Virus record (IMG/VR): IMGVR_UViG_3300047322_000556
Coordinates: 1 to 64,000 of that record
Direction: 5' to 3' (one strand)
Length of the DNA stretch: 64,000 nt
Origin: a virus
Shown here: positions 1,436 through 46,545 of the stretch, one piece after another
Position numbering within the stretch: the first letter of the stretch is position 1
Layout of the letters: the number at the start of each line of letters is the position of its first letter
Notes under the pieces: generated by a model
What the model was told of the DNA's origin: nothing
What the model saw: the letters and a program-made list of their open reading frames with translations, nothing else
The model's database searches: none
Position numbers and translations under genes: made by a program

Positions 1436-2265
1436 TGCTGTCTCTGGCTAAAGTGGTGGGCGTGCATCGCGAGTCGGGCACGGTGGATCTGGTCATGCTG
1501 CACAACGATATGCCGGTGCCGGGCGTGAAGGTCATGGTCGGCACGGCGTCGGGCAATACCGGCTTCACAGACATTCCGGTGCCGGACGTGAATAACGCCG
1601 ACGACCCGTACAAGTCGAGCAATACCGGCGGGCGCGATATGGTCGCGGTGGTCGCGGAATTCTTCGGCAAGCCGATCGTGCTCGGCTTCCTCTTTCCGAC
1701 CATCGCACAGTGCCTCTTTCCGGACGCGAACCGGATGATCTACCGGCATGCGTCGGACGTGTATCTGACGATCGATGACGCGGGCAATACGGAGCTTGCG
1801 CATCCGTCCGGCGCATATCTGCGCATCGGCAAGAGCGGCGCGCACGAGGATCTGACCGGCAAGGACTACAACGGCATGTGGAAAATCGCACGCAACACCG
1901 CGCAGGACGTGCATTTTCATATCGCGATGGGCGGCGGTGCGGCATCGCTCGATATCGCGCCGGACGGCACGATCGTCGTGAATGCGAACGGCACGGTGAC
2001 GATCAATGCGCAAGGCGCGACGACCGTAAAAGCGCCGTCGCTCACGGTTGATTCGCCGCAGAGCACATTTACGGGCGCGGTGACGGTCGAAGGCGCGTTT
2101 GTTTTCCAGTCGGGCATGACTGGATCGGCGGGCTCGGGTGGCGGCTCCACTATGACGATCAACGGCGCGGCGGATTTCAGCGGCGAAGTGAAGTCGGGTG
2201 GCATCAGCCTGCCGCATCACAGCCATAGTGACCCGCAAGGCGGCACGGTGGGGCAGCCTATCTAA
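1435..2265 (+). CDS. Baseplate central spike (gpV-like)
   Basis: Beta-helix-like Gly/Thr/Val repeats and a terminal HxH metal-binding motif (LPHHSHSD). Confidence 0.85.
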   Translation: MLSLAKVVGVHRESGTVDLVMLHNDMPVPGVKVMVGTASGNTGFTDIPVPDVNNADDPYKSSNTGGRDMVAVVAEFFGKPIVLGFLFPTIAQCLFPDANRMIYRHASDVYLTIDDAGNTELAHPSGAYLRIGKSGAHEDLTGKDYNGMWKIARNTAQDVHFHIAMGGGAASLDIAPDGTIVVNANGTVTINAQGATTVKAPSLTVDSPQSTFTGAVTVEGAFVFQSGMTGSAGSGGGSTMTINGAADFSGEVKSGGISLPHHSHSDPQGGTVGQPI

Positions 2266-2290
2266 TCGGTCGTGACGCCAAAGTGGCGTC

Positions 2291-3457
2291 ATGACTGCTC
2301 CGAGCTCCCAAAAGGCCGACGTTCGGCCGATCAGCTTCACGCTTCAGGACACTTCCAAGGGAAGTCAGCCTCTCGCGACGATTCCGCTGTTTATCCGGCC
2401 GGAAGAGCTGACGCGCACCGAAAGTTCGCGCACGACGGTGCATCAAACCTTCGGCGGCAACGGCGGATGGGCGGATTCGTTCGGGCCGGGCGTGCCGACG
2501 CTCTCCATCTCCGGGCATACCGGCTGGCGGCCGGGCGAGGATGGCAACGACGGGCTCGCGCGCATGAAGATGCTGCACGACGTCATCTTCAGCGCGTGGC
2601 ACGTCTCGCGCCAGCTCAAGACGCTGCAAGGGCTCGACCCGGATTCGATCCAGCTCATCTTCTCCGATGGCATGGACGATATCGCGTGGGTCGTCGCGCC
2701 GACGCAATTCATCCTGAAGCGCGATCGCCGCCGCCCGCTGCTCGCGCAGTACCAGATCGGCATGACGTACCTGTCGCAATACGTCGCCTCGTCCAGCTCG
2801 TCATCGGGCTCGACGTTCGGCGCGCTGCAAGCGCTCGGGCTCGATTCGCTCGCCGCGTCGCTGCAAACCGCGATGGATTTTCTGAACGGCATCAACGACG
2901 CGATCAAAAGCGCGCTCGGGCCGATCGTCAGCGCCGTGAAGAGCTTCGTGAAGGTGGTGACGACCGTTTGCACGGCCGTGAAAACCGTCGTCATGACGGG
3001 GCTGAAAGTGGTCAATTCGCTGACCTACGGGCTCATCACAATCGCGAAGGATCTCACGCGCGCCGCGTCGAGCGTCTTTTCGGTGTTCTCGACCATCGCC
3101 TCGATTCCGAACTACGTCAAGACGCAGTTCATGAAGGTGCGCTCGTCGTTCTTCAATATTTTCTGCGTGCTGTCCAACTGCTTCAAGCAGAGCCGCGTGC
3201 TGCAGGATTTTTCGGGCGTCTACGGCGCATCCAACTGCTCTTCGACGGCGGGCGGCACGTCGCTCTCGGCCTATCTGAACGTCAACACGTTCGAACAGAT
3301 TCAGGCGAAGTCGAACGCCGCGCAAGTGCAAACGACGACAGATGCGGCCAATTCGATCACGGCGCTCAAGGGCATCGACGCGGCGACGAATCCGCCGAGC
3401 CTCACTGCGATGCAAGCGCATCTGACGAACATCAATAACGGGCTGGTGGTGAACTAA
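2291..3457 (+). CDS. Tail/baseplate-associated structural protein
   Basis: 388 aa inside the baseplate cluster, preceded by the late-promoter motif. Confidence 0.6.
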   Translation: MTAPSSQKADVRPISFTLQDTSKGSQPLATIPLFIRPEELTRTESSRTTVHQTFGGNGGWADSFGPGVPTLSISGHTGWRPGEDGNDGLARMKMLHDVIFSAWHVSRQLKTLQGLDPDSIQLIFSDGMDDIAWVVAPTQFILKRDRRRPLLAQYQIGMTYLSQYVASSSSSSGSTFGALQALGLDSLAASLQTAMDFLNGINDAIKSALGPIVSAVKSFVKVVTTVCTAVKTVVMTGLKVVNSLTYGLITIAKDLTRAASSVFSVFSTIASIPNYVKTQFMKVRSSFFNIFCVLSNCFKQSRVLQDFSGVYGASNCSSTAGGTSLSAYLNVNTFEQIQAKSNAAQVQTTTDAANSITALKGIDAATNPPSLTAMQAHLTNINNGLVVN

Positions 3458-4068
3458 TGGCGGGCCAATTCAACCCCTCGGGCTATCGCCAAGTCACGGT
3501 CCTGCAAACCGACACGCTCCAGCGCATCGCACTGCGCGAGCTTGGCGACGCGGAACGCTGGCCGGACATTGCGCAATTCAACGATCTGCATCCGCCGTAT
3601 ATCTCGACCGATTCGAGCTATGCCTCGGACGCGCAAGTCGTCGCGCCCGGCGCAACGATTCTGGTCCCTACGGCCGCGAGCCAAGTGAACGCGACGGCAT
3701 CGACCGACGTGCTCGGCGCCGATCTTCGGCTCGTCAATGGCGAGCTCGTCATCGACGGCGGCGATCTCGCTGTCGTCTCCGGCATGGACAACCTTTCGCA
3801 AGCGCTGAAGGTGCGCATCGGCATCGATAAGGAAGAGCTCGTCTTTCATCCGGAATTCGGGAGCTGGATCAGAAAACTCATCGGCACTGGCGCAGGCCCG
3901 ACGACCGCGCAGCTCGCCGCGCTCTACGTGCGCTCGGCGCTCATTGAGGACGACCGCGTCCAGCAAGTCACCAGCGTGACGACCGTCGTCAACGGCGACA
4001 AATTCAACGTGACCGCGAAGGTGCAAATCGTCAGCGGGCAAACCGTTTCCCTTTCGATGGTGGTGTGA
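3457..4068 (+). CDS. LysM + gp25/DUF2634-like baseplate wedge protein
   Basis: N-terminal LysM-like 'DTLQRIALRELGDAERWPDIAQFN' and C-terminal 'HPEFGS..ALIEDDRV'. Confidence 0.75.
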   Translation: MAGQFNPSGYRQVTVLQTDTLQRIALRELGDAERWPDIAQFNDLHPPYISTDSSYASDAQVVAPGATILVPTAASQVNATASTDVLGADLRLVNGELVIDGGDLAVVSGMDNLSQALKVRIGIDKEELVFHPEFGSWIRKLIGTGAGPTTAQLAALYVRSALIEDDRVQQVTSVTTVVNGDKFNVTAKVQIVSGQTVSLSMVV

Positions 4069-5190
4069 ATGGCCTTTCAGGTAAAAGACTTCGCGAGTAT
4101 CAGCGCATCGTGCATCAACTATCTGAAGTCCATTCAGACGGCGATCACTGACTTCCGTATCGGCGCGATCGCGCGAACGATCATGGAAGCGGTTGCGATG
4201 GAGCTCGAAGAGCTCTATCAGCAAATGTTTGTCGGCTTGCGCGAGGCGATTCCGACCGCGATCTATACGTCGTTCGATTTTCCGAAGCTCGCCGCAGTCG
4301 CCGCGAGCGGCAACGTGCGCGTCACGATCACGGCGCAGGCCGCCGACGTCAAAATCCCGTCCGGCACGATCTTCACGCCGGTCGGCGCGGCGCTCACCTT
4401 CGCCTCTCGCGCGGACGTGACGGTCGCCGCAGGCGCGACGTATGCCGACGTCTACGTGACGTGCGCGACGGCGGGCACGAGCGGCAATCTCCCGGCGGCG
4501 ACGTCCTTCTCGTTGCAGCCGCAGCCAAGCGGCTATGTGTCGGCGGCCAATACCGGCGCTTTCACGACCGGGACGGACGACGAAACCGACGCGCAGCAAA
4601 AGGCGCGCTTCGTCTCGTACATCAATTCGCTTCAGCGCGGCACGGTCGCGGCAGTGAAGTACGGCTTGTCGATCGCCAATGTGACCGATGCGAACGGCAT
4701 CATCATCGAGCAAGTGGTCGCGTCGAACGTGGTCGAGCCGTGGATCACGGACAACACGCAGCCGGTCGGCTACGTGCAGGCGTACATCCACAATGGCGTG
4801 AATGGCGCCTCGGCCGATCTGCTCGCGCAGGCGAAGCAAGTCGTCTATGGCTACTACAAGACGGATGGCACGGCAGTGCCCGGCTACAAGGCCGCTGGCG
4901 CGCGCGTCGATATCACGGCCGCAACGGTGATTAGCGTCAATGTCACAGGGACGATCTTCGTCGCAAGCGGCTATGTCGCCGCAGACGTGAAAACGTCCGT
5001 CCAGAACGCCATTTCGAACTATCTCACCGAGCTCAATGTCGGCGTGCCCGCGCAATACGCGACGCTCGTGCAGCTCGCTATGGATACGCCGGGCGTCTCC
5101 GATTTCGCGCTTGCATCGCCCACGTCGAACACGAGCCTTTCGGTAAGCCAAAAGGTCATGCCGGGCACGCTCAACCTGACGACGCAATAA
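4069..5190 (+). CDS. Baseplate J-like protein
   Basis: 'GTSGNLPA..GTDDETD..RF..L.RGT' baseplate J motifs. Confidence 0.9.
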   Translation: MAFQVKDFASISASCINYLKSIQTAITDFRIGAIARTIMEAVAMELEELYQQMFVGLREAIPTAIYTSFDFPKLAAVAASGNVRVTITAQAADVKIPSGTIFTPVGAALTFASRADVTVAAGATYADVYVTCATAGTSGNLPAATSFSLQPQPSGYVSAANTGAFTTGTDDETDAQQKARFVSYINSLQRGTVAAVKYGLSIANVTDANGIIIEQVVASNVVEPWITDNTQPVGYVQAYIHNGVNGASADLLAQAKQVVYGYYKTDGTAVPGYKAAGARVDITAATVISVNVTGTIFVASGYVAADVKTSVQNAISNYLTELNVGVPAQYATLVQLAMDTPGVSDFALASPTSNTSLSVSQKVMPGTLNLTTQ

Positions 5191-5191
5191 C

Positions 5192-6193
5192 ATGAAGCTC
5201 ACGCAAAAACTGCTCGGCTCGATCTATCGCGCGTTCAACAAGGACGCGAACGCGTATCTCGCGCTGCGCATCAACTACAGCGGCGGCCCGCTCGTCTGGA
5301 CCGTCGCGGACGGCATTCTGACAGGCACGAGCGGCTCGACGCAGCTCTTCTCGCTCGATCTGTCTCAGTACACGCTCGCGACGCTCGCGGCGGCACTGGC
5401 GGCCGTTCCGGGCGTCAGTGTGCCATTTCTCACGAGTAACAACACGTCGCTTTCCGCGCGCGTGCTGATCGATGCGAGCGGCGACCAGTCGGCGAGCAAT
5501 GGCGATCACTTGATGGCCTATTCCTCGACGCTGTGGGCGCTACTGGAGCCCTTCGCGAGCGAGCTCGTCGCGGCGGCGCTGCAAATCAAGCAGGCTCTTT
5601 TGCAAATGAGCCTGAAAACCGCAAGCAACGAATGGGTTGACGAGTGGGGCGGCTACTTCAACGTGCCACGCGAGAGTGGCGAGCAAGACGCTTCCTACGC
5701 GGCGCGAATCGTCATGGAAGTGCTGCGCCCGCGCGGCAACAATGTCGCGATCGAAGCGGCGCTCTTCGAGCTGCTCGGGCAGAAAGTGACCGTGACGGAT
5801 CTGTACTTGGCGACGAATTCCATGTCGCCGCAGGTGCTCGGTCTGTTCGACGTGCAGGCGGGCTATGACTTGCTCGGCTCGGACGATCTCAACGCCTATA
5901 CGGAGATGGTCAAGGCCCGCATCGAGACGCTGCGCGACGCGGGCATGCACCTGAATTCGTTCGCGATCATCGGGAGCACGCTCACCGATTCGCCGGGCTA
6001 CACGCCAAACGACGACGGGCTGAGCGTGAAGATGAACGTCGGCACGCAGTTGGCGGACCCGGTTGCAGCGGATCCGACCGATAGCGGCTCGATTCATTGG
6101 GTGCAGGCGACTACCTATAACGGCGTGCGCAACTTCGACGGCATCATCAATTACAGCTCGGGCAGCGCGTTCGATGAAACGCTGAGCGGCTGA
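5192..6193 (+). CDS. Baseplate wedge protein (gpI-like)
   Basis: Follows J. Motif 'WVDEWGGYFNVPRESGEQDASYAARI'. Confidence 0.7.
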   Translation: MKLTQKLLGSIYRAFNKDANAYLALRINYSGGPLVWTVADGILTGTSGSTQLFSLDLSQYTLATLAAALAAVPGVSVPFLTSNNTSLSARVLIDASGDQSASNGDHLMAYSSTLWALLEPFASELVAAALQIKQALLQMSLKTASNEWVDEWGGYFNVPRESGEQDASYAARIVMEVLRPRGNNVAIEAALFELLGQKVTVTDLYLATNSMSPQVLGLFDVQAGYDLLGSDDLNAYTEMVKARIETLRDAGMHLNSFAIIGSTLTDSPGYTPNDDGLSVKMNVGTQLADPVAADPTDSGSIHWVQATTYNGVRNFDGIINYSSGSAFDETLSG

Positions 6194-6248
6194 TCCACGC
6201 GCTCAGTCGTGACGCGAAAGTGACTCCAACACTCTTTGGAGTCACCTA

Positions 6249-6692
6249 ATGCAACTTCGCGACGAAGTACGGGATGCGCCGACCGGGCATCTCATCTGCC
6301 GCGCTTACAGAAACGGTCGGCTTATCGACTTGCTCGATGACCCGAATCTCGTCGTCACGGCGTCCAAGCAGATTCAGGCCAATGCGCTCGGCAATACGTC
6401 CGGCTGGACGATCACGCAAATGGGCTATGGCACGAACGGCGCGACGCCTGTGCTGACCGATACGGCGCTCACCGGGCAATACGCGAAGGCGTTCGATTCC
6501 GTCACCTTCCCGGCGACGAATCAGGTGCAGTTCAACTTTTCGCTCGGCACGACCGAAGCGAATGGCATGTCCATTCAGGAATTCGGACTTCTCACGACCA
6601 ACGGCAAGCTCTTCGCGCGCAAGGTGCGACTCGCGGCTCTGGTGAAGCAGTCGGATATCACGATTTCCGGCTCGTGGATCATCACTTTCTGA
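6249..6692 (+). CDS. Tail collar / fibre attachment protein
   Basis: 'EANGMSIQEFGLL..LFARK' typical of collar-fibre proteins, directly before the fibre. Confidence 0.7.
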   Translation: MQLRDEVRDAPTGHLICRAYRNGRLIDLLDDPNLVVTASKQIQANALGNTSGWTITQMGYGTNGATPVLTDTALTGQYAKAFDSVTFPATNQVQFNFSLGTTEANGMSIQEFGLLTTNGKLFARKVRLAALVKQSDITISGSWIITF

Positions 6693-6701
6693 GGCGCGTA
6701 G

Positions 6702-9584
6702 ATGGCAAACATTGTTGAAACGGTCAACTACGATTCGGGCGTCTATCTCATCGCGACGACGGACGCCGTCGTCGGCGGAACGGCGGGCATTGCGAACAAG
6801 GCCGCGACGAATCTCGCGAACCGCACGGCGTATCTGAAGGCCCAGGTCGATACGATCAACGCGCTCACGCCGACGCTCGCGCCGCTGCTGTCGCCCACGC
6901 TGACCGGCACGCCAAAAACGGCCGCGCCGAGCGTCGGCGACAACACGGTCCAGATCGCGACGACCGCGTTCGTCCAGATCACGTCGAAGGGCCGCATCGC
7001 GATCAACGTCGCGGGCAGCGCGAACGTCACGCTCTCGGCCGTGCAGGCGGGCTATGCGTTCATCGAATTCACTGGCGCGCTGACGGGCAATATCACGATC
7101 ACGGTGCCCGGCTCGGCTTCGAAGTGGGCGATGAAGAATTCGACGTCCGGCTCGTACACGATCACGCTCAAGAGCGCGACGGCGGGCGGCACGACGATGG
7201 ATCTTCCGCAGACGGGCTTGCAAGACGTTCTGACGGACGGCACGAACGTCTACGGGCTCGGCTATCTGCCGCTGACCGGCGGCATGGTTTCGCCGAGCGG
7301 CTCGACCAACACCGCAAGCGGGTGGGCGGCGCTGAACACGCCGACGCTGCGCGTGGCCGATGCCTATTCGGGCACTGGCGGCGGTCTGTCGATCGAGTCG
7401 TATCAGCCGACGATTCAGCTCATCGACCAGACGGCGAACGCGAAGAACATGCGTTTGCTGATGGATAACGGCGTTCTCAAGATCGCCAATGATCCGGGCG
7501 ATAACAGCGGCGTGTGGAATACCTCGGGCTTCGCGCTCAACGCTGACGGCTACATGACCGTAGGCGGCGGGGTTACGTCGCCGTCGAACAACGTCGTGTA
7601 CTACGCGAACGGCGTGAGCCTCAGCACGTCTACGACGGCGTATGGCTTCTTCCACGCGCAAGAGTTCAACGAGACAACGACCGGCGGCGGCTACGCGTTC
7701 ACTGCGGCCCCGAAGGTGAAGGCTTCGGCTTTCACAATGGGGAACCTGATCGGCTTCTACGCCAACGTGCCGACGATCGGCGCGGGCGCGACCGTCACGA
7801 GCTATACGGGCTTCTACGTTCAAGACTTCAGCGGCGCCGGAAGCAACTACGGCTTGCGCATGCGCATGAGCTCGGGCACTGGCAAGTGGAATATCTACGC
7901 GGACGGAACCGCGTCGAACTATCTCGGCGGCACGCTTCTGATCGGCACGACGACCGATAACGGCACGGACAAGCTGCAGGTCGTGGGAACCGTCAAGTCG
8001 AGCGGCAGTATAACGACCGGCGGCGCATTTAACGTTGATGGCGCGGCAGGGGTGGGCCGGTCGGTTTATTTCAAGACGTCGGGGTCGAACCGATGGGAGC
8101 TGACGGCAAGTTCGTCGGCTGAATCGGGCAGCAATGCCGGGTCTAATCTCGTTCTGAATCGATATAGCGACGCTGGAACGTGGATCGACTCGCCTCTTTC
8201 GATCACGCGCTCAACTGGTATAGCTTCGTTTGGAGTGTCGCCGACTGCGCCGACGCCCACGGCTGGCGACTCCAGCACGACGCTCGCGACGACCGCGTTC
8301 GTCGTCAACACGAAAAACGGCGCTTCGACGGTGAGCGTCGCGGGCAGCACGAACCGCACGCTCACGGCCGCACAAGCGGGCGTCGGCATCATCATTCTGA
8401 CGGGCGCGCTGACGGGCTCCATCACGGTGTTTGTGCCCGCCGGAACCGGGCAGTACATTTTCTCGAACCGCACGACGGGCTCGTACACGCTGAACCTCGG
8501 CGTCTCGGGCGCGGGCGGCACGACGGCGATCGTCCCGCAAGGGCAGTCTGTTGTCGCGTACAGCGACGGCACCAACATCGTGCTCGCGGGCGCGGCGGCG
8601 AGCAGCTCCTTCACGCGCTATTCGTTCACGGCGACGGCCGGGCAGTCGTCTTTCCCCGCGATCTATACCGTGGGCAACGTGCTCGCGATGGTCAATGGCG
8701 CGGTGCAAGCCGCCGCCGACATTACGGCAACGGACAGCGCGACGGTGCAGCTCACCGGCTACAACGGCGGGGCGGGCTGCCTCGGCGGCGAGGACGTGAC
8801 GATCATCGCGTTCACTTCCTTCACGGTGGCGAACGCGATGACGCCTGCGGGCGGCACGTTTAGCGGCCCGATCATGCTTGCGGGTAGCGATACGGGCGTG
8901 ACGCCTGCGCAGTTCGACAACAGCACGAAGCTGGCGACGACCGGGTTTGTGCAACGGGCACTGGGCTCCTATCCGAACACGGTCGTGGTCGCATCGACGC
9001 AGTCGTATAGCGCCGCGTCCGTCGGACGGGCCGTTTCGATCAACACGGCATCGGCCAACACGCAGACGCTTCCGCAAGCAAGTACATGCGCGGCCGGTGC
9101 CGCGATTACGTTCAGCAACAGTGGCACTGGCGTCGCAACGATCGCGCCGTTCGCGGGTAATTCCCTGTATATCGCCGGCCGCGCCGGGAGTGCCAACGTT
9201 GCGCTCGCGGTGGGGGATTGGGCGGTTTTTGTTTGCGATGGATCGTCAAGTTGGACTGCGATTTATGGGTCTGCGCAAACTCAGTTCACGGCTGGATTCG
9301 GCGCGTCCCTCGCCGCGTCCGGTTATCAAAAGCTCCCCTCGGGTCTGATTATCCAGTGGGGAACGGCAGTTACGAGCGGGTCGGGAACGGTGACGGCAAC
9401 GCTACCAATAGCATTCCCAAATGCGAACTTGCGAACGGTTGGTATGTACCAGTCCGGATCGCTATCGGTGGTTATCGTGAACGTCGGAACGACCGGAACG
9501 ACGTACTCGAATTTTTGGGCCTGCAATGGCTCGGGGGCCGCTGTTTCAGGCGTGACGATCAGCTACATCGCTATCGGGTACTAG
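6702..9584 (+). CDS. Long tail fibre
   Basis: 960 aa, G/T/S/A-rich, 'LANRTAYLK', three 'D(N/S)..ATT.FV' repeats, C-terminal 'GYQKLPSGLIIQWG' tip domain. Confidence 0.9.
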   Translation: MANIVETVNYDSGVYLIATTDAVVGGTAGIANKAATNLANRTAYLKAQVDTINALTPTLAPLLSPTLTGTPKTAAPSVGDNTVQIATTAFVQITSKGRIAINVAGSANVTLSAVQAGYAFIEFTGALTGNITITVPGSASKWAMKNSTSGSYTITLKSATAGGTTMDLPQTGLQDVLTDGTNVYGLGYLPLTGGMVSPSGSTNTASGWAALNTPTLRVADAYSGTGGGLSIESYQPTIQLIDQTANAKNMRLLMDNGVLKIANDPGDNSGVWNTSGFALNADGYMTVGGGVTSPSNNVVYYANGVSLSTSTTAYGFFHAQEFNETTTGGGYAFTAAPKVKASAFTMGNLIGFYANVPTIGAGATVTSYTGFYVQDFSGAGSNYGLRMRMSSGTGKWNIYADGTASNYLGGTLLIGTTTDNGTDKLQVVGTVKSSGSITTGGAFNVDGAAGVGRSVYFKTSGSNRWELTASSSAESGSNAGSNLVLNRYSDAGTWIDSPLSITRSTGIASFGVSPTAPTPTAGDSSTTLATTAFVVNTKNGASTVSVAGSTNRTLTAAQAGVGIIILTGALTGSITVFVPAGTGQYIFSNRTTGSYTLNLGVSGAGGTTAIVPQGQSVVAYSDGTNIVLAGAAASSSFTRYSFTATAGQSSFPAIYTVGNVLAMVNGAVQAAADITATDSATVQLTGYNGGAGCLGGEDVTIIAFTSFTVANAMTPAGGTFSGPIMLAGSDTGVTPAQFDNSTKLATTGFVQRALGSYPNTVVVASTQSYSAASVGRAVSINTASANTQTLPQASTCAAGAAITFSNSGTGVATIAPFAGNSLYIAGRAGSANVALAVGDWAVFVCDGSSSWTAIYGSAQTQFTAGFGASLAASGYQKLPSGLIIQWGTAVTSGSGTVTATLPIAFPNANLRTVGMYQSGSLSVVIVNVGTTGTTYSNFWACNGSGAAVSGVTISYIAIGY

Positions 9585-9688: not shown

Positions 9689-10447
9689 ATGGGCGCTCTT
9701 TCGGCCACTCTGGCAAAGCTAGGCTCGCTTTTTTCGATCGATGGATCGAATCAAATTCTGCTTCCGGCTACGCCGCCGCAGTTTGATAACTCGCTGCTCG
9801 CAGCATCGACCGCGTTTGTAAAACGCGTGGGGCTTCAGGCTTCAGGGGTAACGGTCGTAACCGCGAGCGGTGCCATTGCGGCCGCTCAGGCGGGCGGATT
9901 GGTTATCTGTAACAGCGCGTCGGCAATAACGCTTACGCTGAATGCTGCGTCTGGATTCCCCGATGGATCTCGTATCGAGTTTCTGAACGTGGCAAATGGC
10001 GCGGTGACGATCGCCAAGCAGGCCGGAGACATTCTCGCGCCGAGCGGCAGCAACCCGAGCACGTTCACGCTGAACAACGGCGATACGTTGGTTTTGGAAT
10101 CGCGGGGTTCCGCGAACATCTGGTATGCGGTGGGCGGTTCCACGCGGCTTGCGTATGCGGGTAACTTCGGCGCGTCCCTCGCCGCTACCGGTTATCAAAA
10201 GCTGCCGAGCGGGCTGATTGTTCAGTGGGGGTTTTTTGCTGGCTCCAACGCTGGCGATACCGCGATCACTTTCCCTATCGCATTCCCGACAAATTTTCTT
10301 TGTGCAACGGTGAGCGGCTTATGCAGCGGGACGGGCGCTTGGGGTGGATACAACAGCGCAACAAAGACCGGCATGAACGGTAACTGGTGGGCCGCCGCCA
10401 GTACTCGTCAGTCGGGGACTGCAACCTATATCGCATTCGGATATTAA
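9689..10447 (+). CDS. Second (short) tail-fibre tip protein
   Basis: Paralogous to the C-terminal ~230 aa of the long fibre ('PQFDNS..AFV', 'GYQKLPSGLIVQWG'). Confidence 0.85.
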   Translation: MGALSATLAKLGSLFSIDGSNQILLPATPPQFDNSLLAASTAFVKRVGLQASGVTVVTASGAIAAAQAGGLVICNSASAITLTLNAASGFPDGSRIEFLNVANGAVTIAKQAGDILAPSGSNPSTFTLNNGDTLVLESRGSANIWYAVGGSTRLAYAGNFGASLAATGYQKLPSGLIVQWGFFAGSNAGDTAITFPIAFPTNFLCATVSGLCSGTGAWGGYNSATKTGMNGNWWAAASTRQSGTATYIAFGY

Positions 10448-38888: not shown

Positions 38889-39113
38889 ATGATGATGGTC
38901 GAACGGGAAAGGGAGCGCGTGAGTGGCGCGGATCGCGTCGCGAAGCATCGTGACAAGGTGATACGGGAGGGCGGCAAGCGCACGACCGTCACGATACAGC
39001 CCGACGCGGTGCGAGCGTCCGACGAGCTGATCGAGCTCGGTTACGCGGACAATCTCACTGAAGCCATCAACAAGTCGCTGCTCGAAGCGCGACGAAAACA
39101 CCGCCAAGCCTGA
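38889..39113 (+). CDS. Small RHH-like DNA-binding protein
   Basis: 'ADRVAKHR....GGKRTTVTI'. Paralog of 47047-47247. Confidence 0.6.
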   Translation: MMMVERERERVSGADRVAKHRDKVIREGGKRTTVTIQPDAVRASDELIELGYADNLTEAINKSLLEARRKHRQA

Positions 39114-39117
39114 TCCA

Positions 39118-39141
39118 AAGCCCGCCGCGTGCGGGCTTTTT
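39118..39141 (+). terminator. Rho-independent terminator
   Basis: AAGCCCGC-cgcgt-GCGGGCTTTTT. Confidence 0.8.
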
Positions 39142-39187
39142 GCTATCCGGTCGTGACGCAAGGATTCCTCTATCAAGGAGGAATTCG

Positions 39188-41062
39188 ATGAGCAAAGCCG
39201 AAAATGTGGCGTTCGACGCCAGCGCGCCCGCCGACGAGCGCGGGGATGCGCTCGGGCAGCTACAGAAGGCTCATGCGCCGACTGCACTCTCTAGCCTGCT
39301 GCCGAACGACGCCGTGCGCGACGTCATCTCGTTCATTCAGGACGGCTTCGAAGAGGCCGCCATGAACAAGGCGATCAACCCGAACATCGTGCCTTTCCCG
39401 TCCAAGCGCTCGCGCGACGGCGAGCCGGGCGTGCAGTCGGTCACGCTCGATGAATGGCAAGTGCAGGTTCAAGGCCAGTATTGGGACCGGCCCGGCGCGC
39501 TCTCGTTCGATTCGCTGCGCGCGATGGTCGATCAGACGCCGATTCTGAACGCTGTCATCCTCACGCGCATTCGCCAAGTGCAGCGCTTTTGCCGCGTGGC
39601 CGAGTCGGGCGACGACAAGCCCGGTTTCGAGATCCGCCACGTCGATAAACACCACAAGCTGACGGAAAGCGAGCGCGAGTCGATCCAGTTGCTCAACCGT
39701 TTCATCGGCAACTGTGGGTGGGAGTTCAAGCCGCGCCGACGCAAGGCGCTGCGCCGCGACGCCTTCAGTCAGTTCATGGCGAAGTGGGTGCGCGATACGC
39801 TCTCGATGGACTCCGCGCCGATCGAGCTCGAATGGAAGCGCGACAAGGCGCTCGGCATCGACGGCTTCTACAGCGTGGACGGTGCGACCATTCGCCTCTG
39901 TACAGAGGACGGATACGAAGGCGACGACGAGGTTTTCGCGCTTCAGGTCGTGCAGGGCCGCATCTCGACGGCATATACCTTCGATGACTTGATCTACGAG
40001 CCGCGCAACCCGCGCACGGACGTGAGCGCTTCGGGCTACGGCATCTCCGAGACGGAGCTGCTCATTCGCATCGTGACGGGCTTCCTGAATGCGCTGACCT
40101 ACAACATCAAGGGCTTCGATTCGAACGCGATTCCGAAGGGCATGCTGCATCTGAGCGGCAACTACACGCAAGACGATATCGCCAGCTTCAAGCGATATTG
40201 GAATTCGATGGTGAAGGGCATCAACAATGCATGGGCGCTGCCCGTCATGGTGTCCAAGGATCAGGAGTCGCGCGCGGGCTTCGAGAAGTTCGGCGTTGAA
40301 TACAACGAAATGTACTTCGCCAAGTGGATGACCTTCTTGACCAGCATCATTTGCGCGGTCTACGGCATGAGCCCGGCGGAAATCAACTTCGACGCCTTCA
40401 GTGGCGGCGCTACGTCGGCGCTCTCGGGCTCGGATACGGGTGAGAAGCTCGCCGCGTCGAGGGACTCGGGGCTCATGCCGCTGCTTTCGCATGCCGAAGG
40501 CATCATCACTGACTACATCATCGGCGACTTTTCCGACAAGTTCGCGTTCCGCTGGACGGGCCGCGATCCGGAGGACGCCGACCGCAAGCAGAAGAAAAAG
40601 GAGCTCATTCTCACGGTCGATGAGATGCGCTCGGAAGAGAGTTACGACCCGCATCCGGACCCGCTTATCGGTGGTGCGCCGCTCAACGGCCAGCTCGTCG
40701 CGCTCTACACGCAATCGAAGCAGCCGCAGCAGCAGGAGGACTTCGGTGCGCCGGGCGGCGGTGCGCCGGGTGAAGGCGGTGAGGCGCCGGGCGACGGCGA
40801 CTTCGGCGGGCAAGGCCCGAATGGCGACTTCGGCAAGGGCGATGATCCACAGCCGGACTTTGGCAAGCCTGACGCCGTGGGCGACGCGGGCAAGCCGGGC
40901 GACGTCGCGAACGCGCCCGCTGATCCAGCGCTCGGCGACGACGCGACGGGCGACGAAATTCCTGGAGACGGCACGCCCGACGAGCCCGCCGACTTCGGCA
41001 AGCAGGCCGGTGAAGAGGACTTCGGCAAGGCGCTGCCGACCATCTACTCGCTGGAGGACTGA
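39188..41062 (+). CDS. Portal protein
   Basis: 'YEPRNPRTD..GYGISETE', 'F..NAIPKG.L', 'ICAVYGMSPAEINF'. Acidic DFG-repeat tail. Confidence 0.85.
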   Translation: MSKAENVAFDASAPADERGDALGQLQKAHAPTALSSLLPNDAVRDVISFIQDGFEEAAMNKAINPNIVPFPSKRSRDGEPGVQSVTLDEWQVQVQGQYWDRPGALSFDSLRAMVDQTPILNAVILTRIRQVQRFCRVAESGDDKPGFEIRHVDKHHKLTESERESIQLLNRFIGNCGWEFKPRRRKALRRDAFSQFMAKWVRDTLSMDSAPIELEWKRDKALGIDGFYSVDGATIRLCTEDGYEGDDEVFALQVVQGRISTAYTFDDLIYEPRNPRTDVSASGYGISETELLIRIVTGFLNALTYNIKGFDSNAIPKGMLHLSGNYTQDDIASFKRYWNSMVKGINNAWALPVMVSKDQESRAGFEKFGVEYNEMYFAKWMTFLTSIICAVYGMSPAEINFDAFSGGATSALSGSDTGEKLAASRDSGLMPLLSHAEGIITDYIIGDFSDKFAFRWTGRDPEDADRKQKKKELILTVDEMRSEESYDPHPDPLIGGAPLNGQLVALYTQSKQPQQQEDFGAPGGGAPGEGGEAPGDGDFGGQGPNGDFGKGDDPQPDFGKPDAVGDAGKPGDVANAPADPALGDDATGDEIPGDGTPDEPADFGKQAGEEDFGKALPTIYSLED

Positions 41063-41580
41063 TGACGCGCGAATTCAACGTGAAGCAGCCGCATAGCGTC
41101 ATCGAAGGCGACGAGCTCTACTTCCAGCATCCGACGCGCGGCGTGAGCTGCGCGGCCGTGCGCTCGGTGGGCAAGCACGGCGTGCGCGTGAGCGATGACG
41201 AGGCGCCTGACGGTCTGCCGGTGCGGTGGGAGCATGTACTTGGGCACAAGGCGCGCGCGCAGCGCAAGCTCGTTGTCGTGGACAAGGGCGAGGACGGCTC
41301 GATCGCCGAGGACGAAAGCGGCAAGCGCGTCTATATCAACGGGCGCATTCCGGGCGAGGCGCCGAGCGCGCCGCTCGCGAAGTCATTCGAGCTCGGTGCG
41401 GTCGCGACGCCGGACGATATCGAGCCGGTTCTGCTCGCCGCGCTTGAGGCCGGGCGCGGTTCCGCCGAGCTCGCCGCACTGATCCATCAACTCATCGAAC
41501 GCACCGCGCGCACTGAGGCGCTGCTGCTGGCGCTCGTCGCGAAGTTCGGCATTCAAACTGACACTGGAGTATCCGCATGA
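41062..41580 (+). CDS. Head-module hypothetical protein
   Basis: Coupled to portal. Confidence 0.55.
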   Translation: MTREFNVKQPHSVIEGDELYFQHPTRGVSCAAVRSVGKHGVRVSDDEAPDGLPVRWEHVLGHKARAQRKLVVVDKGEDGSIAEDESGKRVYINGRIPGEAPSAPLAKSFELGAVATPDDIEPVLLAALEAGRGSAELAALIHQLIERTARTEALLLALVAKFGIQTDTGVSA

Positions 41581-41990
41581 CCACGATCGTGTTTTTCAAG
41601 TCGATTCGTCCGGCTGACGACAAAGAGCAGCTCGGCGCGAAGCCGGGCGAAAAGCCGCAGGAGCCCGCAGGCGACGCCGCTGCTGCCGCACAGAAGCCCG
41701 CGCCCAAGGAAGCGCCGCAAGCCGCGCAGAAGCCGCAGGGTGAGCCGCGCGAAGGTGGTGAAGGTGAGGAAGGCGGCGAAGGCTTCGGCCCGCACAACGT
41801 CGAAGCCGGGCATCACGTCGCGTTTCACGCGGGCGAGTTCAAGGGCGCGGGCAAGGTGACGGCTTCGGGTGAGGACGGCTGCACGGTCGCGGATAAGAGC
41901 GGGCGCGAGCATCGCGTGCATTGGCACGAGGTCAAGGGTCATCACGACGGCGCGGCTGAAGGTGCGGCCGAGAAGGGTTCGGCCGAGTAA
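41577..41990 (+). CDS. Head-module hypothetical protein with 'IVFFKS' leader
   Basis: Low-complexity linker plus small C-terminal domain. Confidence 0.55.
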   Translation: MTTIVFFKSIRPADDKEQLGAKPGEKPQEPAGDAAAAAQKPAPKEAPQAAQKPQGEPREGGEGEEGGEGFGPHNVEAGHHVAFHAGEFKGAGKVTASGEDGCTVADKSGREHRVHWHEVKGHHDGAAEGAAEKGSAE

Positions 41991-43153
41991 TGGCGCTCCT
42001 GCTCGACATTGGTCCGATCTCGTGTGGCTGCACGAATCACGCGCTGGAGCTCTTTTCGAAGGCAATGAGCGGTGAGGACGGCTCGGACGAAGGCATCTGG
42101 AAGCCGCACGATTCGCCGTTCGTGCGGTATCTGATCGAGCTCTTCACGTCGAAGGGCTTGACGATGCTGTCCGACGTGCAGGCCGAGCTCAATGCGTGGA
42201 TCGAAGGGCAGCGCTATCAGCCGAGCCCGCAGCCGGTCGAGAAGCCGCAGCCGCAGCTCTATGCGCAGTGGACGCCCGCCGAAATGGATCTTGTCGAGCT
42301 CTACCTATCGAGCCTCTCGCGCATGCAGTTCACGCTCGAAGATTGGGGCTTGCTGATCGACTTCCTGATTCAGCGCTATATGCCGCTGTCCGATCTTCAG
42401 AAGCAGGCGACGGCGCTCGCCGTGCGCGCCGCGCTCATGGGCAAGGCGCAAAAGATCATCGAGACGATTCCGGATGATGCGGCCGCGAAGGTGGTCGAGT
42501 CCATGCCGCAGAGCTACGCGGAAGCGCGCGAGCTCTTCGGCGGCCAGAAGCTCTTCGACTCGGTCATGGAATACGGCACGCTGCGCGCGTGCGAGAACGT
42601 GCAGCAGTTGAGCGACGAAGTACGCCATCGTATGAAAAGCACGGTGCTCGCGTCGGTGTCGCAAGCGCAGCAGGGCGACGTGTGGGCGGTCAGTGCGCTC
42701 CAGCAAAAGCTGCTCGATGACTTCGCGACGATGAACAGGGATTGGCGTCGCATCGCCGTGACCGAAGCCGGTGAGTGCGCGAATCAGGGCTTCATCGCGT
42801 CGCTGCCGCTCGGCACGAAGGTCAAGCGCATGGAGATTTATCACGGCGCGTGCTCCTACTGCCGAAAGATCAACGGTCGTGTGATGACGGTCGTCGCGGC
42901 GAACGACCCGAACAAGGACGGCGACACGGACGTGTGGCCGGGCAAGACGAACGTCGGGCGATCCAGCGCGCGGCGCAAGCGCGTCGGCGACGAGCTCATC
43001 GAGCGCACGCCTGAAGAAATGTGGTGGGTACCGGCGGGCACGGTGCATCCGCATTGCCGGGGCATCTGGCATGTGCTGCGCAAGATTCAGACGGCGGGCG
43101 ACGAGAAGTTTACGGCGTGGCTCGCGCAGCATTTGGCGGGTCCGGATAAATAA
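41990..43153 (+). CDS. Head morphogenesis protein (MuF/SPP1 gp7-like)
   Basis: 'RDWRRIAVTE', 'ACSYC...NG', 'HPHCRG'. Confidence 0.8.
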   Translation: MALLLDIGPISCGCTNHALELFSKAMSGEDGSDEGIWKPHDSPFVRYLIELFTSKGLTMLSDVQAELNAWIEGQRYQPSPQPVEKPQPQLYAQWTPAEMDLVELYLSSLSRMQFTLEDWGLLIDFLIQRYMPLSDLQKQATALAVRAALMGKAQKIIETIPDDAAAKVVESMPQSYAEARELFGGQKLFDSVMEYGTLRACENVQQLSDEVRHRMKSTVLASVSQAQQGDVWAVSALQQKLLDDFATMNRDWRRIAVTEAGECANQGFIASLPLGTKVKRMEIYHGACSYCRKINGRVMTVVAANDPNKDGDTDVWPGKTNVGRSSARRKRVGDELIERTPEEMWWVPAGTVHPHCRGIWHVLRKIQTAGDEKFTAWLAQHLAGPDK

Positions 43154-43413
43154 AAACTACCTACCGGATAAAAAGCACTTGTATCTCCGAGATAAAGTGT
43201 TTTAAGATTGCTCCCACTGAGACGCAGCAAACAACACAGGGGAACGAGATGAAAAACGCAGACTTCGGATTCGCGCATCGCAAGGCTTTTCTGGCTGAAA
43301 CGGCGCGCAGCGTGGCTTCGCGTGTGTTTGGCGCGGCGCTCGGAATCATCATCTGCGGCTCGATCACTGGTGCGATGCTGGCGGCTCGGGGATAAATCTA
43401 CCGGGTAAAGTCG

Positions 43414-43863
43414 GTGCAACTCCATCTCTTCACGAAGGAAATTAGTCGCATGGGTTTCGTTTCTGCAATTGAGCTGCAAAAGCCGATCGTTCGCAATCGC
43501 ATCAAGAAGGGCGTCGCGATTTCGACCATCCGCAACAATGACGAGGCGTATCTTCAGGTGCGCATCGACAACGAGACGCTGAAGGAAGCGCGCTTGTTCG
43601 TCGGCGATCGCCTCGATGTGCTGTTCGATAAGGAAGGCCGCCTCGGGCTCGTCAAGCGCGTGAAAGAGGGCGGCTGGCAGTTGACGACGGCAGGCGATAA
43701 GGCGGGCCGTGTTCGCGTGCGTTGGGCTCCGGGTCTGCCGCATACGAGCGAGTTTGTCGAAATTTTTGACGTGACGGCCGATGAAACTGAGGGCGTCATG
43801 TTCCAGTTGCCCGAAGCTGTGACTTTCGTCGGCTCGCCGAAGTTTTCGGAAGCCAAGGCATGA
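43414..43863 (+). CDS. Hypothetical protein
   Basis: 149 aa, preceded by operators. Confidence 0.55.
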   Translation: MQLHLFTKEISRMGFVSAIELQKPIVRNRIKKGVAISTIRNNDEAYLQVRIDNETLKEARLFVGDRLDVLFDKEGRLGLVKRVKEGGWQLTTAGDKAGRVRVRWAPGLPHTSEFVEIFDVTADETEGVMFQLPEAVTFVGSPKFSEAKA

Positions 43864-44126
43864 AGCGCATGGCTGTTGCGGCGATTCTCGCGATCGTTAC
43901 TGCGACTGCGCTTGCGAAGGGCGGCGGCGGCGGTGGTCACGGTGGTGGTGGCGGTCATGCGAGCGCAAGCGCGCATCCTTCCGCCTCGGCGCATCCGGTG
44001 ACGTCCGCGCACGCTGTCGAGTCGCCCGCGCCGCATGCTTCGACGTCGTCGGGCAGTCGTCCTTTCTCTTGGTTCTTCGGTGGATCAAGAGGCTGCGACA
44101 AGTCGAAGCAGCAGGATTGCAAGTGA
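43860..44126 (+). CDS. Small secreted Gly/His-rich protein
   Basis: Signal peptide followed by 'KGGGGGGHGGGGGH'. Confidence 0.55.
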   Translation: MKRMAVAAILAIVTATALAKGGGGGGHGGGGGHASASAHPSASAHPVTSAHAVESPAPHASTSSGSRPFSWFFGGSRGCDKSKQQDCK

Positions 44127-44129
44127 TTC

Positions 44130-45140
44130 CTGTGAAGAGGGAGAGTCGCCGGACTTAAATCGGGGAGTGGCTCGCCTAACGAGCCGCCTCAGAAGAGCGG
44201 CCCGCCGTCGTCGCGCCGACGTAAAAGTGGCCGTAGCTCCGTATGTCGATAGGCAAGGGTCTTTAGCTCGCGTTTGAGCCCTTTCCGTACACAGGGCCGC
44301 TCTTCTGAGGTTGCGCGTGGTGTGCAAAGCCGCGCGCGAGCTTCGAATGACTGGCGTAACCAGTTGGGCCGCCGACCGGCGGTGAGGGGCGCAAGTCGCT
44401 TCACCGTCAGCCCGGCAACGAATTCTTCCTACGGGTACTCGCGCGAGCGAGTTTGGAATGCTGGCAGATATCCCGTTGAATGATCCAGCCCCCGGCGATG
44501 CGGGTGTAATCATCAGGTGGCCGTCACCATGAGCATCGTTAATCCTCGGCCGCGTGGCTCCCGTAAGGAGCCGCCCGCAAAGCGCATTCGCTGAGTGCTC
44601 TTTGCGGGTCTGGATGACTACCTTTCAAGACGGACCCTGTAAATGTCCACGAAGGCGCGATCAGCTCTGCGTTACATGCGACGACTGACTGCCGTAAGCA
44701 GTCATCTCACGCGAAGCATTTGGGTCGGTGCCACCAGCAGTATGCCGATCTCCCCGACCGATCAGCGCGAACACGTCATCGGTTCAAATGCTTCGACGTG
44801 AGATTAAGCGGTCGCAGCCGCTCGGAAACGTCGCGAGACGCTCCTGACTGCCGGGAAAGTACCGGCCCAATTTTGTGTGACCCGCGATGTTGGGAACTAC
44901 GACCGTAGCCTCGGCGGCCCTTTCGGGGGATAAACGAGGACGAGGATTAGCAGGCGAGTGCCTCGGCAGCAAAACCCTTGCAGCACAGCACGACTATCCT
45001 AACCGCCGTTTCGCTCTAGCTTCGAGCGCGGTCGTCGGGGCTGATCGACGCGAGAGACGAGAACGGCGTCGCGCGTTCGTTTGCCGAGTGGCTCCCGTAA
45101 GGGGCCATGCCCGACTTGCCGCCGTAAGTGGCAGCCCTTC
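44130..45140 (+). ncRNA. Candidate large structured ncRNA or ncRNA cluster
   Basis: ~1 kb with no convincing ORF, long perfect helices, six C(G/C)TAA-loop hairpins and long-range complementarity. Abuts a tRNA. Confidence 0.6.
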
Positions 45141-45227
45141 GCGTGGGTAGTCCCGTAACGGTATCGGGGGGAGACTGTAAATCTCTTGCCTTCGGCCTTG
45201 GTGGTTCGAATCCATCGCCACGCACCA
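45141..45227 (+). tRNA. tRNA-Tyr(GUA), atypical
   Basis: GGAGA-CTGTAAA-TCTCT anticodon arm, long variable arm, GGTGG-TTCGAAT-CCATC T-arm, A73 and encoded CCA. Confidence 0.85.
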
Positions 45228-45243
45228 TATTTTCGGAGTCTGA

Positions 45244-45732
45244 ATGTCTCGTCGCGTCAAGCTGGTGCTGCTCGGTGTGGTCGTGTTCATCGCGATCGCG
45301 ATTCTCTTCTCGTCGTGCAGCTCGCGCGAGTACTCGACGGCATACGCGCCGCAATATGCGCCGCCGGTCGTCGCGCAAGCGCCGATCATTCAGCCCGCGC
45401 CGATCGTCCAAGCTGCGCCGGTCGTCGTGCAGCAAAACGACGGCTTCATTCATGGCCTTCTGCTCGGGCACATGATGAGCGGCGGCGGCAGTCATTCGGT
45501 CGTCCATCACTACGATGCGCCGCGCCCGGCATACGTCGCGCCGCGCACGACAGTCGTCAATAACACGACCGTCATCAATCGCCCGGCCGCGCCCGCATAC
45601 GTGCCGCCAAAGCCCGCTTACGTCTCTCCGAGGCCCGCATACGTCGCGCCGCGCGCAACGTCCTACGCGGGCTCCTATGCGTCGCGATCGAGCTATTCGT
45701 CCGTGACGTCGCGCGCAGTCTCACGCCGGTAA
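45244..45732 (+). CDS. Membrane-anchored low-complexity protein (possible lipoprotein)
   Basis: Hydrophobic N-terminus ending 'LFSSC', with PAYV repeats. Confidence 0.6.
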   Translation: MSRRVKLVLLGVVVFIAIAILFSSCSSREYSTAYAPQYAPPVVAQAPIIQPAPIVQAAPVVVQQNDGFIHGLLLGHMMSGGGSHSVVHHYDAPRPAYVAPRTTVVNNTTVINRPAAPAYVPPKPAYVSPRPAYVAPRATSYAGSYASRSSYSSVTSRAVSRR

Positions 45733-46031
45733 CGCTCAAGGGGCATCGCATGTACATGACCGATCTATTCGAAAGCCTGAGCATGTGTATGAACGCCTAC
45801 GCGCGCGCCGCGTGGCTGTGGTCGATCGAACTGGATCGGCTTTCGGCGATGTGCTCGACGCGCAAGTAGGGCTCTGACGTATCGCGCCGGGTGTCGTTCA
45901 GCGCGTAACAGGGGTGGACTTCAGTGATGACCCGACCCGGCGCGATACGCGAGAGTCCAATGCAAGGGTAAGAGCGGGTGAGTGCATCAATATCCCGCCG
46001 CTCTCAACCCAATTTCAACGAAGGAGCCGAT

Positions 46032-46521: not shown

Positions 46522-46545
46522 GGCCGCCCTAAGCGGCCTTTTTTT
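46522..46545 (+). terminator. Rho-independent terminator
   Basis: GGCCGC-cctaa-GCGGCC-TTTTTTT. Confidence 0.8.

Follow-up and report, generated by a model that had tools for sequence, protein, structure and literature searches.

A modular array of structured RNAs with a recurrent pentaloop hairpin and a core pseudoknot beside a phage tRNA-Tyr gene

The window analysed in this work (64,000 nucleotides, i.e., the first 64 kb of the 89,361-base IMG/VR virus record IMGVR_UViG_3300047322_000556, whose completeness is rated 97%) harbors, at positions 44127-45227 of the + strand, an array of structured RNA elements that ends in a tRNA-Tyr gene. The array is a real, strand-specific and modular RNA locus, in part already catalogued (the Proteo-phage-1 RNA and the tRNA-Tyr) and for the most part not. 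It is no new giant RNA, and its interest stems from two clearly delimited elements, namely a boundary hairpin, occurring six times along the array, and a core pseudoknot. The reading that we favor, and that we consider somewhat more probable than its negation, is that at least five independent small structured RNAs and the tRNA-Tyr are transcribed together as an array lying within a + strand phage operon, in which the hairpin represents a cis-acting boundary element. The components of the array are listed in Table 1; the relatives of the window, designated by L-numbers (L003, L004, L009 and so on), are contigs retrieved by homologue or pattern searches.

Structured modules and their relatives

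The array is located between an open reading frame (ORF) of 88 amino acids (aa; 43860-44126) and an ORF of 162 aa starting at 45244. The initial annotation had stated that no credible ORF exists between 44126 and 45141, and the analysis agrees with it. None of the eight ORFs of 62-142 aa tested in this region matches a Pfam family. The gaps in the alignment with L004, a close relative (about 80% identity across 44100-44424) whose contig stops inside module B, have lengths of 2, 6, 10, 5, 24 and 4 bases in the non-coding part up to 44424; most of them are not multiples of three, which speaks against a reading frame. Moreover, folding is strand-specific, the energy z-score being -6.42 on the + strand versus -2.58 on the - strand (20 shuffles per strand). 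The long helices and the six pentaloop hairpins described in that annotation were all recovered by an inverted-repeat scan, RNAfold and a pentaloop scan. In particular, the inverted repeat 44179-44203/44294-44318 includes the 17-bp helix of module A, and the scan arms of module D (44712-44722/44785-44795) are extended by RNAfold to 19 bp with one bulge (44704-44722/44785-44804). On the + strand, the stretch is a structured non-coding RNA. Contigs from four DNA runs contained pieces identical to the array, without variation; the remaining pieces are short unrelated matches, three at about 44180-44218 and one at 45026-45065.

Covariation among homologues, which had been indicated as a check, was observed in helix A, H2, H3, the long hairpin, the core and helix D. 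In L004, the helix closing module A shows three adjacent compensatory double changes (GAA to AGU, with UUC to ACU). The portion comprising H3, the long hairpin and the core was evaluated on seven sequences: 97.5% of the cells are paired, versus 34-51% in slid controls, and 11 pairs are changed on both sides, a value as high as this being reached in 0/500 shuffles. The long hairpin taken alone is 99% paired in this set, with five pairs changed on both sides. The phage Mica aligns to 44555-44805 with a region embedded in its own unannotated gap between the integrase and a tRNA-like gene, and shows compensatory changes in H3, the long hairpin, H4 and helix D. The architecture of module D is predicted by RNAfold to be alike in six phages (the window phage, Mica, L013, L058, L076 and L091), with a small internal loop and compensatory changes in the upper stem; a T-arm-like GGUUCGAA hairpin is found inside the module in L058 and L091. 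The call of a structured non-coding RNA is upheld by the compensatory changes relative to L004 and Mica together with the formal pair counts.

The array consists of modules that are found apart from each other, and reordered, in unrelated phages. A blastn search against plasmids gave no match to the array, and the same search against phages retrieved only Mica, the core of Schitoviridae and tRNA-Tyr look-alikes. The 387-aa protein encoded upstream, used as a query, disclosed four loci, i.e., one identical, one close (L004) and two distant ones lacking the RNA. Relative to the core, the Proteo-phage-1 RNA is placed about 600 nt upstream in L013, a Caballeronia prophage contig, versus 250 nt downstream in the window; it stands alone in L025, between a phage gene and a terminator; a strict Proteo-phage-1 pattern added one new locus. 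L022 and L023, both from a Herbaspirillum assembly, share two long modules whose order with respect to the core is reversed between them, and one of the junctions coincides exactly with the hairpin. More generally, the order and the content of the modules differ among L013, L022, L023, Mica and L083, and the module D unit recurs in five other phages. As for the relatedness of these phages, a translated search revealed, besides the RNA modules, no more than two proteins common to Mica and the window phage, SSB and a VRR-NUC nuclease, and the Bordetella phage PHB04 shares essentially nothing with the window phage in the region compared.

Concerning the families already catalogued, the whole window was analysed with cmscan and Rfam 15 at gathering scores, and the region 43500-45800 at E values up to 10. 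The only Rfam family within the array is Proteo-phage-1 (RF03044), which scores 57.6 bits versus a gathering threshold of 42 and is aligned over positions 1-82 of the 82 of the model, with both hairpins; further members are present in L013 and L025. This match left the RNA call intact and removed the novelty only of the 83 bases, out of about 1,100, covered by this family. The core, module D and the hairpin have no match among Rfam 15 families, the core at E values up to 10. GOLLD, ROOL, c4, group I/II introns, self-cleaving ribozymes, Y RNA and transfer-messenger RNA (tmRNA) gave no match in 43500-45800 at E values up to 10. The gene closing the array is, as proposed, a tRNA gene, called by ARAGORN as tRNA-Tyr (gta; 45145-45227); in Rfam it is matched only by the tRNA-Sec model, with 29.8 bits, below the 47-bit gathering score, and the annotated tRNA-Tyr of Piffle behaves alike (29.2 bits). 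A literature search with the family name and the motif strings gave nothing relevant, and CGUAA gave only unrelated papers, although supplementary catalogues may list these motifs, including that of PMC10690425, a catalogue of viral structured RNAs.

Table 1. Elements of the array and the terminator located downstream of it (positions in the window).
Feature	Coordinates	Strand	Description
Leader	44127-44166	+	Follows the stop codon of the 88-aa ORF; nearly invariant relative to L004 and more conserved than the end of that ORF; GGGAGAGUC at 44145-44153
Hairpin H1	44167-44187	+	8-bp stem, loop CCUAA (44175-44179); starts 41 nt past the upstream stop codon; invariant in L004
Module A	44187-44341	+	Perfect 17-bp closing helix (44187-44203/44294-44310), branched interior, then hairpin 44311-44341
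Hairpin H2	44348-44366	+	Loop CGUAA (44355-44359); in L004, G-C to C-G and U-A to U-G
Module B	44367-44553	+	Branched domain; conserved with L004 only to about 44424; 44538-44548 is the 5' arm of a long-range pairing
Hairpin H3	44554-44574	+	Loop CGUAA (44562-44566); 3/7 stem pairs change on both sides (seven sequences)
Long hairpin	44574-44608	+	16 bp, one conserved mismatch, triloop; scan arms 44574-44589/44593-44608
Core pseudoknot	44606-44655	+	S1 44606-44610/44633-44637; S2 44622-44625/44652-44655
Hairpin H4	44686-44704	+	Canonical CGAC-UGACUGC-CGUAA-GCAGUCA, loop at 44693; Mica and L083 have a hairpin at the equivalent place after the core
Module D	44705-44804	+	Closing helix, conserved CUCACGC/GUGAG base, variable interior
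Hairpin GCCGG-GAAAGUA-CCGGC	44850-44875 (stem-loop 44850-44866)	+	Followed by CCAAUUUUGU; weakly terminator-like
Proteo-phage-1 RNA (RF03044)	44903-44985	+	Full length (Rfam)
Module E	44986-45087	+	Structured in the minimum-energy fold; no relatives outside the identical contig L003
Hairpin H5	45088-45108	+	Loop CGUAA (45096), U-G pair in the stem; near-copy of H3
Hairpin H6	45116-45134	+	Loop CGUAA (45123), G-U pairs in the stem; 6 nt before the Rfam-aligned tRNA
tRNA-Tyr (GUA)	45141/45145-45227	+	Long variable arm, encoded CCA; start at 45145 (ARAGORN) or 45141 (Rfam)
Intrinsic terminator	46522-46538	+	GGCCGC-CCUAA-GCGGCC + U7; first strong terminator past the array; same hairpin type as the six of the array

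Boundary hairpin and core pseudoknot

The boundary hairpin is confined to one strand. Both strands of the whole 89,361-base genome were scanned for a C[GC]T[AT]A pentaloop closed by a stem of 5 bp or more. Seven such hairpins were returned, all of them on the + strand, and the 64-kb window gave the same outcome. Six of the seven lie within 44167-45134, and the seventh is the terminator at 46522-46538. The loop CGTAA accounts for 5/16 pentaloop hairpins of the region and is outside the top ten loops of the 654 pentaloop hairpins detected elsewhere. In the window, the hairpin stands directly 5' of modules A, B and D, of the long hairpin plus core, and of the tRNA (at 6 nt); it also lies directly 5' of a tRNA in PHB04 (8 nt) and L049 (4 nt). 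H6 with its 5' flank is 96% identical to a copy of the Caballeronia prophage contig.

The hairpin is not peculiar to this locus. Its extended 24-nt consensus (C-GAC-UGRCYGC-CGUWA-GCRGYCA, with a 7-bp stem) was scanned as a pattern against IMG/VR and matched 63 viral-contig loci spanning 46-71% G+C. The statistics were taken over 52 distinct 90-nt contexts. In these, the base preceding the searched pattern is always C (52/52); 41 have a CGUAA loop and 11 a CGUUA loop; the stem's four free positions are paired in 48, and at least five T occur among the next eight bases in six. This scarcity of U-rich tails leaves termination as no explanation of the hairpin. Most loci have a single copy, and the copy number among relatives reaches two in Mica and L023 and three in L013, as well as three in tandem in L035 and L052. 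In many loci a stop codon lies a few bases ahead of the hairpin, and a ribosome-binding site with a start codon follows it at a distance of 16-42 nt. Of 20 ORFs tested that lie upstream of the hairpin, seven encode a major head protein and one an integrase. In L035 and L052, the triple tandem precedes acidic scaffold-like genes and their ribosome-binding sites and is located behind promoter-like hexamers (judged by eye). Among non-redundant loci, 41 of 51 have the hairpin co-oriented with the stronger coding strand; this bias, together with that of the window phage (7/7), the G-U pairs of H5 and H6 and the asymmetric loop, argues for an RNA element rather than a DNA palindrome. In the L070 group, which has A+T-rich flanks, a U-tract follows the hairpin, which resembles a terminator behind a capsid gene. 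As a separate observation, the 320-nt gap of L070 between the capsid-like gene and this hairpin-terminator (about 5620-5945, in the orientation of the hairpin) contains three hairpins with a GGAGAGAC-type loop on differing stems.

Other identities were considered for the hairpin. A host repeat of the REP (repetitive extragenic palindromic) type was rejected: a search of 200 other genomes from the family to which the Herbaspirillum assembly belongs found no copy, and the three copies of that assembly are in its two core-bearing contigs. A mimic of the type I-F CRISPR repeat was dropped, as the stems vary and the loop is kept. A promoter for a phage polymerase was left unsupported, given the six copies in 1 kb and the annotation of Mica, which contains no phage-type RNA polymerase gene and only a 72-aa ORF similar to the RNA polymerase alpha subunit. 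Intrinsic termination as the class of the six hairpins was discarded as well: none of them appears in the terminator scan, which flagged only 46522-46538 and the unrelated hairpin at 44850-44866. Finally, it is a speculation that the hairpin might be a decoy of the anticodon loop of tRNA-Tyr (CCGUAAG resembles CUGUAAA); it is common at loci without tRNA-Tyr.

A 50-nt match within the tRNA clusters of three Schitoviridae phages (Piffle, Paxi and PB119) first drew attention to the core. Pattern scans yielded ten viral-contig loci (eight further sequences), six genome-contig loci and 16 metagenome loci; once duplicates, L099 (a coding false positive) and L109 (at a contig edge) had been dropped, 25 sequences remained, the window included, and a covariance model added a divergent 26th copy, L083 (39 bits). 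These 26 sequences, of about 55 nt, come from contigs titled or annotated as Burkholderia phage (Mica), Schitoviridae and Acidobacteria assemblies, the contigs of the last being phage-like. The best-supported fold, as judged from these sequences, is an H-type pseudoknot formed by two stems, S1 and S2. In S1 (N-GGUC/GACC-N), 4/5 pairs change on both sides; at the terminal pair, 17 sequences have G-C, eight have A-U and one is unpaired, and L083 swaps the whole stem (AACCC/GGGUU). In S2, 5/6 pairs change on both sides, and 0/500 shuffles reach the observed covariation score. Little or no variation is seen in the loops UGGAUGA, CAAGACG and UAAAUGUCCA, and 26 columns of the core are invariant in the 26 sequences; two of the loops sat in the search patterns, so that this invariance is in part a matter of ascertainment. 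The 5' element GGUCUGGAUG is present in all the nine metagenome sequences kept, though it lay outside the metagenome search pattern. A first model of the core, combining a GUCU/AGAC pseudoknot with a GGAC/GUCC hairpin, was abandoned, as it showed no compensatory change and is broken by L083.

Next to the core, the three basal C-G pairs of the long hairpin never vary and compete with S1: the GGG at the 5' end of the core (44606-44608) can pair either with the CCC of 44574-44576 or with that of S1 (44635-44637), not with both. This alternative pairing is a possible conformational switch in the Burkholderiales-type versions.

A tRNA is found within 1.5 kb of the core in 13 of the 25 sequences examined for tRNAs, and starts 54-102 nt downstream of it in six of them; four of these six are tRNA-Met (CAU), at 56-72 nt (L021, L100, L101 and L113). 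Met-like sequences are also present in L014 and L013, and a tRNA-Tyr often lies further upstream of the core in these tRNA-Met loci; the order Tyr-core-Met would accordingly seem to be conserved within one group of tRNA-rich phages. The core is located within tRNA clusters in Piffle, PB119 and L014, and stands alone elsewhere, as in L010, between a gene and a terminator, and in L083, directly past a stop codon.

Interpretation of the array

The initial annotation had left two alternatives, i.e., a single large RNA or a polycistronic precursor of small RNAs with the hairpin as a tag. The second is the one we prefer, on the basis of the modules that occur alone or reordered elsewhere and of the widespread stand-alone hairpin; the first found no support. 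According to the preferred reading, the array would be read through from an upstream promoter-like motif (the nearest copy being at 39150) to the terminator at 46522-46538, which is likely the end of its transcription unit. The hairpin would act in cis on the precursor as a boundary element, either by marking or protecting the RNA ends after cleavage by host RNases, or by insulating the folding of neighboring units. Each module and the tRNA would be released as a separate stable RNA, and the released modules might act in trans, most probably on the host translation or RNA-processing machinery. The hairpin would probably be absent from the mature products and act on the precursor because, in three phages, it lies within the 5' leader of a tRNA, which is removed by RNase P. 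Its strict sequence suggests recognition by a conserved factor, probably host-encoded, because the phages share no obvious protein. The company that the elements keep elsewhere, i.e., tRNA clusters, a two-piece tmRNA and an RtcB ligase, points to translation or RNA repair/defence as possible targets in trans.

Several observations weigh against this interpretation. The transcription, the RNA ends and the processing of the array have all been inferred from the sequence. Modules A and B are known from one close relative only (L004) and module E from none, which leaves the independence of these modules putative. The minimum-energy fold uses the 11-bp pairing 44538/44941, which ties the middle of the array together, and through it a larger fold may form in the window phage, as modelled. 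In L009, the core lies within a stretch of about 1 kb delimited by a promoter-like site and a terminator, an arrangement that would also fit a single long functional transcript, and in L102 the core is on the strand opposite to its tRNAs. Lastly, the sequence of the hairpin is conserved more strictly than an end-protecting stem would need, we know of no nuclease or protein that recognizes it, and the rarity of its U-rich tail (6/52 copies) offers no way out through termination either.

A bolder version, possible and rather doubtful, is that the hairpin is a portable handle read by a conserved host factor and that the core belongs to a new class of small RNA, either catalytic or binding a ligand or a protein. 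Such a handle could string tRNAs, tmRNA, small RNAs and even mRNAs as exchangeable cassettes with the hairpins as joints, and the core could act on host tRNA or on the translation apparatus.

A different role for the hairpin, which we regard as unlikely, is that of a nut/boxB-like tag that loads a phage or host factor on the polymerase and averts Rho-dependent or intrinsic termination, so that the array would chiefly constitute a protected leader of tRNA-Tyr and of the genes that follow. The antitermination of lambda and of rrn operons provides the analogy, and the pentaloop capping a short G+C stem, the conserved 5' flank of the hairpin, the promoter-proximal triple tandems in the 5' untranslated region of the scaffold-like genes of L035 and L052, the copies located inside operons, past stop codons and before ribosome-binding sites, and the presence here of about 1.1 kb of untranslated RNA in mid-operon are all in line with it. 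However, six copies in 1 kb exceed the need, several copies have U-tracts behind them, and no candidate N-like protein is common to the hairpin phages, the only proteins shared by Mica and the window phage being those mentioned above.

Even less probable is the single large ornate RNA, with a global tertiary fold similar to those of GOLLD and ROOL, in which the hairpins would be GNRA-like docking loops (C + GUAA) and the long helices struts. GUAA is a classic docking tetraloop, and the fold of about 1 kb is dense and strand-specific; the unit of L009, between its promoter-like site and its terminator, contains no + strand ORF longer than 70 aa wholly inside it. The initial annotation had also noted two long-range pairings, and both complementarities do exist: 44538/44941 comprises 11 bp with one G-U, falls in a 23-nt repeat that is 78% complementary in the scan, and is present in the minimum-energy fold, whereas 44962/45082 consists of 7 bp in the sequence. 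Comparative support was found for neither of them, and the former competes with the conserved second hairpin of Proteo-phage-1 and lacks its partner sequence at the two other Proteo-phage-1 loci, L013 and L025. In addition, no large-RNA family of Rfam matches at E values up to 10, the order and content of the modules differ between every pair of relatives, so that no global architecture is conserved, and the hairpin also occurs singly, ahead of ordinary genes.

To the same low degree we credit the possibility that the array is evolutionary debris at a recombination hot spot, consisting of decayed remnants of tRNAs and terminators and of linkers marking mosaic joints, with only the tRNA, and perhaps Proteo-phage-1, being functional. 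The joints between modules do coincide with the hairpin, the same hairpin type forms a true terminator at 46522 and in L070, and T-arm-like hairpins and tRNA-like pieces are present in the islands of the relatives. Nevertheless, compensatory change keeps the stems across distant phages, the core retains 26 invariant columns over 26 sequences from Acidobacteria assemblies, Burkholderia phage and Schitoviridae, and the strong folding z-score is seen on one strand only. Least credible is a sponge titrating a host RNA-binding protein in the manner of CsrB/RsmZ with their GGA loops: there are indeed six loops of the same type on differing stems in 1 kb, in a copy number that varies among relatives, but one copy, as found at most loci, cannot titrate, the hairpins are not scattered but keep to the 5' edge of modules and tRNAs, and the modules between them are conserved and covarying.

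Known systems, genomic setting and significance

The array can be compared with several known RNAs. The species 1 and 2 RNAs of T4 (rnaC/rnaD) are small stable RNAs co-transcribed with a phage tRNA cluster; on the basis of the arrangement alone, the likeness lies in structured non-tRNA RNAs sharing one unit with phage tRNAs, and the differences in the shared boundary hairpin, in the exchange of modules among unrelated phages and in the single tRNA in place of a cluster. The giant phage RNAs GOLLD and ROOL adjoin tRNA genes, and the array resembles them in being large, densely structured, phage-borne and next to a tRNA; unlike them, it has no covariance-model match at E values up to 10 and no fixed architecture among relatives. 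The RNase III sites of T7 and the boxB of the lambda nut sites are intercistronic hairpins for processing and antitermination in phage operons. The hairpin of the array is likewise short, conserved, co-oriented, placed between polycistronic units and sometimes promoter-proximal or in tandem; however, its 7-bp stem is too short for a classic RNase III site, its loop is CGUWA and not a GNRA-like GAAAA, and it keeps one sequence over phages of 46-71% G+C without an evident common protein. As to Proteo-phage-1, it is embedded in the array here and alone in L025.

Module D also recalls Y RNAs. According to Chen et al. 2014 (PMC4201824), the Y RNAs of bacteria and phages (YrlA/YrlB) go with Ro60. 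The similarity consists in the two ends of module D forming a long stem around a variable interior, in the T-arm-like hairpin of L058 and L091, and in RtcB beside the RNA island of PHB04; by contrast, module D of the window has no T-arm, there is no YrlA match, and no TROVE, DUF2828 or RtcB gene was found in the window phage. In detail, the YrlA model matched none of the window, L058, L076, L091 and L049, its sole weak match (22.5 bits) being over the tRNAs of PB119; TROVE (Ro60) had no match in the 97%-complete genome with controls positive in 2/14, DUF2828 had none in the genome with controls that gave no response either, and an RtcB gene was not found in the genome of the window phage.

No tmRNA is present in the window, and two-piece tmRNAs occur in the related islands of PHB04 and L021. 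In PHB04 (L097, MF663786), the intervals 531-1724 and 4600-6900 constitute an almost unannotated island of about 2.7 kb with three unannotated tRNAs, the hairpin, a module shared with the Caballeronia prophage and the two-piece tmRNA (tag ANDDYIRAAA); an RtcB ligase gene lies upstream, beside a gene for a 492-aa protein with no Pfam or PDB relative. In L021, an Acidiferrales assembly contig, the tRNA island at 448-6930 contains the core, a two-piece tmRNA (tag AEVNALPMAA) and two tRNAs with a CUA anticodon, labelled Pyl by ARAGORN, which look like amber suppressors. Where L004 diverges from module B, near its contig end (about 8500-8603), it carries a GCGC-GUAA-GCGC hairpin and a perfect T-arm (GCGGGUUCGAAUCCCGC) for which ARAGORN makes no tRNA call. 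A near-identical copy of the hairpin at 44850, GCCGG-GAAAG(U)A-CCGGC after CUGAC, is found in L009 (about 9910-9935), behind the core; a short U-run follows it in the window. Hairpins of the form GCCG-GAGAG-NA-CGGC recur in L016 and L023.

With regard to the genomic setting, the array, beside its single tRNA, stands behind a block of + strand genes led by the portal gene (39140-41062), which is followed by several ORFs without a family match. A scan of 39000-44200 disclosed no terminator-like or sigma-70-like site on the + strand. The promoter-like motif GTCGTGAC, whose nearest upstream copy has been given above, has 13 matches in the window versus 5.75 expected. Downstream of the tRNA, an inverted repeat at 45869-45958 (24-nt arms, 88% complementary, 42 nt apart) occupies the gap between an ORF ending at 45732 and one starting at 45978 and may be a further structured RNA. 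Upstream of the array, another inverted repeat (43575-43596/43966-43987; 22 nt, 86% complementary, 369 nt apart) spans two small ORFs.

The tRNA regions of phages have long been known to hold extra stable RNAs of unknown function. The locus described here gives a parts list for one such region, i.e., a 24-nt boundary hairpin found at 63 loci, a covarying pseudoknot shared by very distant phages, and a module with a closing helix; all three are available in cultured phages, as Mica has the hairpin, the core and module D, and PHB04 has the hairpin. If the modules were inert, the locus would be an ordinary mosaic joint. If the hairpin were a processing or loading signal, it would represent a general rule of phage operon punctuation and a useful tool to express several RNAs from one transcript, and, if the core acted on host tRNA or translation, it would be an RNA-level player in phage takeover or counter-defence.

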